A stretch of DNA of 707 nt from a phage, in the sequence record AB841367.1. The stretch is one strand, 5' to 3'. Under the pieces are notes generated by a model that made no database searches, had not been told where the DNA came from, and saw nothing but the letters and a program-made list of their open reading frames with translations. A program made the position numbers and the translations under genes. Below, in pieces: positions 1 to 707 of this stretch; within the stretch, counting starts at the first letter, position 1, and the number at the start of each line of letters is the position of its first letter.

Positions 1-707
1 TTACGCCAGCTTATCGCCGCACGTAATTTGGTTGCCTTCGTAAATGAAGTCGATAGCGCGGTACACATCGTCATACAGGCCTGTTTTCAGTACACACCAT
101 TGCGGACCATTGGCGCTTGAAGATGCGTCGTATACTAGAACATGGCGCGGAAGGTGGATAATCAGCAACTCATGCGCATCAAATCGCAGCGATTCCATCA
201 CGCCATCAGCCAGTTCATCAGCAGTGTAGGAGCGGAGAATTTTCTCAATGCTCGCGCTGGCGATTGGTGATACCTGACCGGAGCCGATGATATACACAGA
301 CGGCGCACCAGTTGCCGGATTGCTGATGAACGCATAAGAATCAGCGAATGGCGTTTTGCAGTAAGTCCCGGCGATGCCTTTTTGCACCATCAGTGATGGC
401 TGTGCGACATACAAAGCAGCACCAACTGTGGTTGCACCAGTCAGGGAGAAATATTCAATCGTCNACGAACCAAAGCAGACTATGAAGTCTCGCCATGTGC
501 CGATACCGATGATGCCGTCCGGCTGCGATTCTGCGCGATATTGTGCGCTGGANCGGTCAGGATGCNATTCNTCNTCNAGGTCAGTGATAAACCATGAATC
601 ATTACCGTGTTGGGNGNGGNCAGGGGGCCACNNNAACGCNNNNTNTTGCNNANTNGNNCTANCTNNNANTGNNNNAANCCGCTGTCTGTAGGCCAGTTTG
701 AGACGGT
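1..707 (-). CDS. Partial CDS (C-terminal portion; N-terminus lies beyond position 707); hypothetical protein, possibly a phage/prophage structural protein
   Basis: Seen in sequence: the minus-strand frame ending with stop TAA (revcomp of 1-3) is open through 1-414 per the ORF track (137 aa, ...YDDVYRAIDFIYEGNQITCGDKLA*). Manual translation of the same frame upstream of 414 continues without stops: 415-612 reads ...QHGNDSWFITDLxExExHPDRSSAQYRAESQPDGIIGIGTWRDFIVCFGSxTIEYFSLTGATTVGAAL-YVAQP..., where x marks codons containing N. The apparent start at 412-414 is a TTG that is simply the first start-like codon after the N-containing codon at 463-465, so it is an ORF-caller artifact, not a real start. 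The clean terminal bases 679-705 are also open in this frame (RQRYALKLR), but frame continuity across the N-dense 613-678 stretch cannot be verified. Inference: a stop-free frame of at least ~600 nt with enterobacterial-like codon usage is unlikely by chance. The product assignment is a low-confidence guess with no database search behind it. Confidence 0.8.
   Translation of the reverse strand, partial: RLKLAYRQRXXXXXXXXXXQXXAXXWPPXXXQHGNDSWFITDXXXEXHPDXSSAQYRAESQPDGIIGIGTWRDFIVCFGSXTIEYFSLTGATTVGAALYVAQPSLMVQKGIAGTYCKTPFADSYAFISNPATGAPSVYIIGSGQVSPIASASIEKILRSYTADELADGVMESLRFDAHELLIIHLPRHVLVYDASSSANGPQWCVLKTGLYDDVYRAIDFIYEGNQITCGDKLA
464..678. other. Low-quality zone with ambiguous base calls (N), sparse at 464-577 and dense at 615-678
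   Basis: Seen in sequence: N at 464, 553, 566, 571, 574, 577, 615, 617, 620, 632-634, 640-643, 645, 650, 651, 653, 655, 657, 658, 662, 665-667, 669, 672-675 and 678. The progressive rise in N density is typical of the degrading tail of a single-pass read or a low-coverage contig end. Unambiguous sequence resumes at 679-707. Confidence 0.9.

Follow-up and report, generated by a model that had tools for sequence, protein, structure and literature searches.

The DNA analysed here, a stretch of 707 bases that we call the window, is with high confidence a single Sanger-type end read of a HindIII fragment cloned in a pUC19-type lacZ-alpha vector, its insert carrying codons 123-356 of the 472 codons of a P22-like (Lederbergvirus-type) gp10/gp8 gene, likely from an E. 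coli prophage. According to this explanation, seven vector bases would have been left untrimmed at the start of the read, and base calling would have decayed after about position 600. As judged by sequence comparison, the minus strand of the window encodes residues 123-356 of the 472-residue tail hub protein known as gp10 in P22 and gp8 in Sf6. Both the gene and its family are known. RefSeq already contains a near-identical allele, several structures have been solved, and the departures from known gp10 that the window displays are sequencing artefacts only. The features of the window are collected in Table 1.

Table 1. Features assigned to the 707-base window
Feature	Position	Strand	Basis
Vector bases left untrimmed (TTACGCC), from the part of the pUC19-type lacZ-alpha polylinker immediately upstream of its HindIII site; contain the false minus-strand TAA at 1-3	1..7		Vector string match
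HindIII cloning junction, read CAGCTT where AAGCTT is expected	7..12		AAGCTT in UPEC_U013 at the start of homology
gp10 / tail-hub coding, approximately codons 152-356, central beta-propeller part	8..621	-	Frame of base 705; PF11134, 7sg7_T 154-356, identity to UPEC_U013
gp10 coding continued, approximately codons 123-151	623..707	-	UPEC_U013 and Sf6 align collinearly up to base 707, apart from a single gap at about 622
Low-quality read tail	615..678		Contains 27 of the 33 N calls; G miscalls frequent at 609-627

Identity of the encoded protein

The minus-strand frame that ends at window position 1 is open throughout, with X in the translation wherever the read has N. The 234-residue translation matched a single Pfam family, PF11134 Phage_stabilise ('Phage stabilisation protein'), at 405.7 bits (E=3e-121), far above the gathering cutoff of 25 bits and aligned to profile positions 152-352 of 469. 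Likewise, a PHROG search returned one family, phrog_578 'connector / head closure Hc3' (E=2.9e-93). Among proteins of solved structure, with matches ranging from 6e-129 to 4e-121, the best was Sf6 gp8 (7sg7_T, E=5.9e-129), which aligned without a gap over residues 154-356; the P22 gp10 chains 8tvr_S and 8eap_G followed at E ~1e-121. The window protein therefore belongs to the gp10/gp8 tail-hub family by its profiles (PF11134 above the gathering score, and PHROG 578), and it is similar to members of that family whose structures were determined experimentally (7sg7_T, 8tvr_S and 8eap_G). A match of this strength (E=3e-121) to a curated family places the ORF far beyond chance.

The original prediction had tentatively likened the protein to the head-completion (packaged DNA stabilization) protein of the gene 10 type in P22-like podoviruses, and this resemblance is now verified by PF11134, PHROG 578, the PDB matches and the annotated database records. 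Both protein segments that it had quoted, DSWFITDLxxExHPDRSSAQYRAESQPDGIIGIGTWRDFIVCFGS and HELLIIHLPRHVLVYDASS, are found in the translation. The protein had also been described as rich in Gly, Ala, Ser and Thr, and these four do make up 34.2% of the called residues of the window translation. In a typical E. coli proteome they account for about 28%, so that the excess in the window protein is only mild. The reported lack of enzymatic signatures was borne out by a motif check of the translation: the GK[ST] Walker A motif is absent from it, as is HExxH, the string HELLIIH being HExxxxH. Such a lack of enzymatic motifs fits a purely structural role, as has also been proposed for the tail hub (PMC9728967).

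Other candidates in the window were rejected. The plus-strand ORFs (30-105 aa) all lie antisense to the gp10 frame, some of them running through N-rich sequence, and are regarded as shadow ORFs. An Rfam search of both strands in E-value mode returned only the archaeal sR33, at 17.4 bits against a gathering score of 37 (E=0.54), a match attributable to chance.

Gene extent and read quality

The 33 N of the window are unevenly spread, six of them lying between positions 464 and 577 and 27 between 615 and 678, and the first 460 bases are clean. This pattern fits a single Sanger-type read whose quality would decay after about base 600. Coding had been placed at 1-612. An open minus-strand frame is indeed present there, but gp10 coding also fills positions 613-707, and the stop at 1-3 belongs to the vector, two points missed in the original prediction. 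That the coding sequence runs past 612 follows from the collinearity of the window with UPEC_U013 and Sf6, which extends to base 707; the region 613-707, judged by that alignment, is still gp10, but N calls make most of it illegible and a deletion lies near 622. This one-base deletion in the read shifts the frame: residues 123-132 are read as TVSNWPTDSG in the frame of base 707, where the UPEC_U013 protein has TVSNWPADSG, and from about residue 152 on the protein is found in the frame of base 705.

Over residues 159-356, the window protein is identical to that of UPEC_U013 at 193 of 198 positions, the exceptions being four X and an apparent Y175S. The latter results from base 551, which is G in the window and T in the relatives and lies two bases from an N. 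This change, the run of G at 609-627 and the deletion near 622 have the appearance of errors in base calling rather than of real variation. At base 689, within the cleanly called stretch 679-707, the window has T, as does Sf6, where UPEC_U013 has C. Residue 129 is in consequence T in the window and A in UPEC_U013, perhaps among the few genuine differences between the window and its nearest relative.

The vector junction and the apparent stop codon

Mechanical ORF calling on the window yields a 137-aa ORF that 'ends' at base 1. Window positions 1-12 read TTACGCCAGCTT, which equals the pUC19-type polylinker TTACGCCAAGCTT minus one A, and in a direct comparison positions 1-30 equal the expected vector/insert chimera TTACGCCAAGCTTATCGCC... 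minus that single A. Bases 1-7 agree with UPEC_U013 at two of seven positions and with Sf6 at three of seven; the next 593 bases are 99.8% identical to UPEC_U013. In contrast, all seven match the vector string ...ATGATTACGCC that precedes AAGCTT in published primers against HindIII-cut pK19mobsacB. The string ...CAGCTATGACCATGATTACGCCAAGCTT, which leads up to HindIII in the lacZ-alpha polylinker of pUC19-type vectors, was found in 142 papers. When the pUC19 polylinker was compared with the PLSDB plasmids, only GCCAAGCTT...GAATTC was matched, at 100% (query bases 15-74); the upstream part, ATGACCATGATTAC, was present in none of the PLSDB records listed and was confirmed instead from the published pK19mobsacB primers.

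On the insert side, UPEC_U013 carries AAGCTT exactly where the homology to the window starts (positions 6000-6005 of the extracted region, L002), and this is the sole HindIII site within positions 5001-8000 of that region. All database matches begin at window base 3, 6 or 8. Because of the polylinker match, the HindIII site at the junction and the point at which homology starts, the ORF end 'LA*' is ascribed to vector bases plus a dropped base. The TAA at 1-3 is an artefact of the two, and the dropped A is a base-calling loss, which is ordinary at the start of a read. The assignment to a vector, as far as comparison of the letters goes, concerns seven unmatched bases and a HindIII site that would need one dropped base; Sf6-type relatives read CCAGCTT at the junction, and on that comparison only bases 1-5 stay unexplained. 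In UPEC_U013 the true protein goes on ...GDKLESMTGKLQFD... for about 116 more residues.

Relatives and distribution of the gene

The best DNA match was to a prophage of E. coli UPEC_U013 (WP_094283073.1, NZ_CP058596.1), which agrees with the window at 586 of 587 called bases between positions 8 and 600, N excluded. This prophage gp10 thus matches the window at 99.8% of called bases and has its HindIII site at the point where the read begins. It differs in being intact, with 472 residues, whereas the window holds codons 123-356 only and with sequencing errors; the T for C at base 689 is possibly a real difference between the two.

Sf6 gp8 (7sg7 chain T; PMC9728967) is near-identical as a protein over residues 154-356, where it displays one clear amino-acid change, GATTVGAAL against GATTAGAAL. 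Its DNA is 94.9% identical over window positions 8-600, differing by 30 nucleotide changes, and CCAGCTT replaces the HindIII site at the junction. The gp10 of P22 (8tvr, 8u10, 8u11, 9jg6, 8eap and 8eb7), matched at E=5e-122 over residues 154-355, is the founding member of the family and the protein from which the 'packaged DNA stabilization / head completion' role takes its definition. It differs from the window protein by about a dozen conservative substitutions across the 200 aligned residues and comes from another host genus.

The gene was matched in 911 of 5,426 complete E. coli genomes (∼17%), at 957 places, and 915 of the records are annotated as packaged DNA stabilization or gp10-type; 'packaged DNA stabilization protein gp10' is the annotation of all the E. 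coli matches listed. Seven of the 957 places are on plasmid replicons rather than chromosomes, which may be P22-like phage-plasmids or replicons assigned wrongly. In addition, 35 phage records matched at 80-95% identity, of which 25, including Sf6, CUS-3 and IME10, are listed at 92-94%, the best among those listed reaching 93.7%. Annotations in the listed phage records vary between DNA stabilization protein, head closure Hc3 and head completion protein. Labels for the gp10 gene in phages are inconsistent beyond this, and include 'hypothetical protein', 'membrane spanning protein' (phiv205-1), 'tail accessory protein' and 'tail tube protein/DNA stabilization protein 2'.

Genomic context and source of the DNA

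The window comprises 707 bases without flanks, and its context was read from three relatives: UPEC_U013, Sf6 and a prophage in an E. coli assembly (L003; NZ_CP026085.1, 1447838-1488441). In UPEC_U013, the genes for the terminase large subunit, the portal, a protein at the scaffold position, a P22-type coat, a small protein and a gp4-family adaptor precede gp10, which is followed by genes for a tail needle knob protein (gp26-type), a DUF2824 protein (gp14-type) and three ejection/DNA-transfer proteins. The order in Sf6 is the same, and the notes of its record spell out the P22 equivalents. In all three relatives, gp10 sits between the gp4 adaptor and the gp26 tail needle. Synteny in a 99.8%-identical relative and in Sf6 supports the proposal that the window is part of a prophage morphogenesis module, which a window without flanks does not itself display.

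The third relative is a P22-like prophage integrated beside tRNA-Arg and intS. It is 94.5% identical to the window, and because its identity is only at that level it is not the source of the window. The assembly that carries it (4.83 Mb) is labelled E. coli DH5alpha, and the prophage looks complete from integrase to immunity region and adjoins tRNA-Arg, intS and yfdC. A match was also found in a second assembly labelled DH5alpha (NZ_CM135829.1). A P22-like prophage is unexpected in a K-12 laboratory strain such as DH5alpha, and the strain label or the lineage of these assemblies may be worth checking.

Host and prophage status, as read from the nearest database relative only, would be those of UPEC_U013: the DNA most likely came from a prophage in an E. 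coli strain very close to it. A prophage is favoured over a free phage because the chromosomal prophage is 99.8% identical, against 93.7% for the best phage isolate listed.

Alternative explanations

The insert might instead derive from the virions of a free P22-like phage, for example through a clone library of a phage genome, rather than from a chromosomal prophage. Temperate P22-like phages occur both as prophage and as free phage, and the same gene is present in 35 sequenced phages (80-95% identity; 25 listed, 92-94%). Nevertheless, the chromosomal prophage matches 99.8% of called bases where the best phage record listed matches 93.7%, and the gene was matched in some 17% of the complete E. 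coli genomes, so that we consider an origin from a free phage rather unlikely, although it retains some weight. It leaves the identity of the gene unchanged. Far less can be said for a non-phage origin, in which the ORF would encode a cellular beta-propeller or another housekeeping protein, or would be a chance open frame. The only Pfam and PHROG families matched are phage tail-hub families (E=3e-121 and 3e-93), and the annotated E. coli matches listed are all prophage gp10; this origin is so improbable that it can practically be dismissed. The protein comparison that the original prediction had called for thus ended in phage tail-hub families, and neither a best match to a housekeeping protein nor a lack of phage similarity was seen.

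A different alternative concerns the end of the ORF. The TAA at 1-3 might be genuine, with gp10 truncated after residue 357, for example in a decaying prophage or at a rearrangement or insertion junction that happens to mimic a pUC polylinker at a HindIII site. The stop does appear in the ORF list, and homology to all relatives ceases at base 3, 6 or 8. However, the seven non-homologous bases are the exact vector bases that precede HindIII in pUC19-type polylinkers, and the break coincides with the only HindIII site within 3 kb in a relative that is 99.8% identical. The record, moreover, begins exactly at the break, as is expected of a clone-end read, and a chance match of 5 to 7 specified bases has a probability of about 1e-3 to 6e-5. 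A genuine truncation is accordingly very improbable, and the stop is best explained by untrimmed vector at the end of a cloned HindIII fragment.

The tail hub of P22-like phages

In the tail of Sf6, a head-to-tail adaptor (P22 gp4) links the portal to the tail hub (Sf6 gp8, P22 gp10), whose six monomers are added sequentially, resulting in a hexamer that lengthens the DNA channel (PMC9728967). Each hub protomer is an interrupted six-bladed beta-propeller; its N- and C-terminal extensions build an insertion domain, which is wedged in between two subunits of the adaptor (PMC9728967). At its bottom, the channel is lined by the second blade, which touches the needle, a trimer (P22 gp26) that serves as the channel plug, and six tailspike trimers bind laterally via two of their three N-terminal domains (PMC9728967).

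By homology to this assembly (PMC9728967), the window protein would adopt the six-bladed propeller fold and form a hexamer on the gp4 dodecamer. With its near-identical solved homologues in mind, one may picture its action as follows. After headful packaging, the portal would recruit twelve gp4 adaptor subunits; six gp10 monomers would then join gp4 to form a hexameric beta-propeller ring, extending the DNA channel. The gp26 needle would plug this channel, leading to retention of the DNA, and six tailspike trimers would dock at the sides of the hub. The part of gp10 held in the window would be the central propeller, without the N- and C-terminal extensions of the adaptor-binding insertion domain.

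Significance

The window carries very little biological weight of its own: the gp10/gp8 tail hub is structurally and biochemically characterised, and the allele is essentially present in RefSeq. Its practical use is in quality control, as a raw clone-end read with untrimmed vector, a false stop, a frameshifting deletion and many N. Since the stop is made by the vector and the tail of the read is frameshifted and rich in N, annotating this record from its ORFs would mistakenly yield a truncated protein in place of the tail hub.
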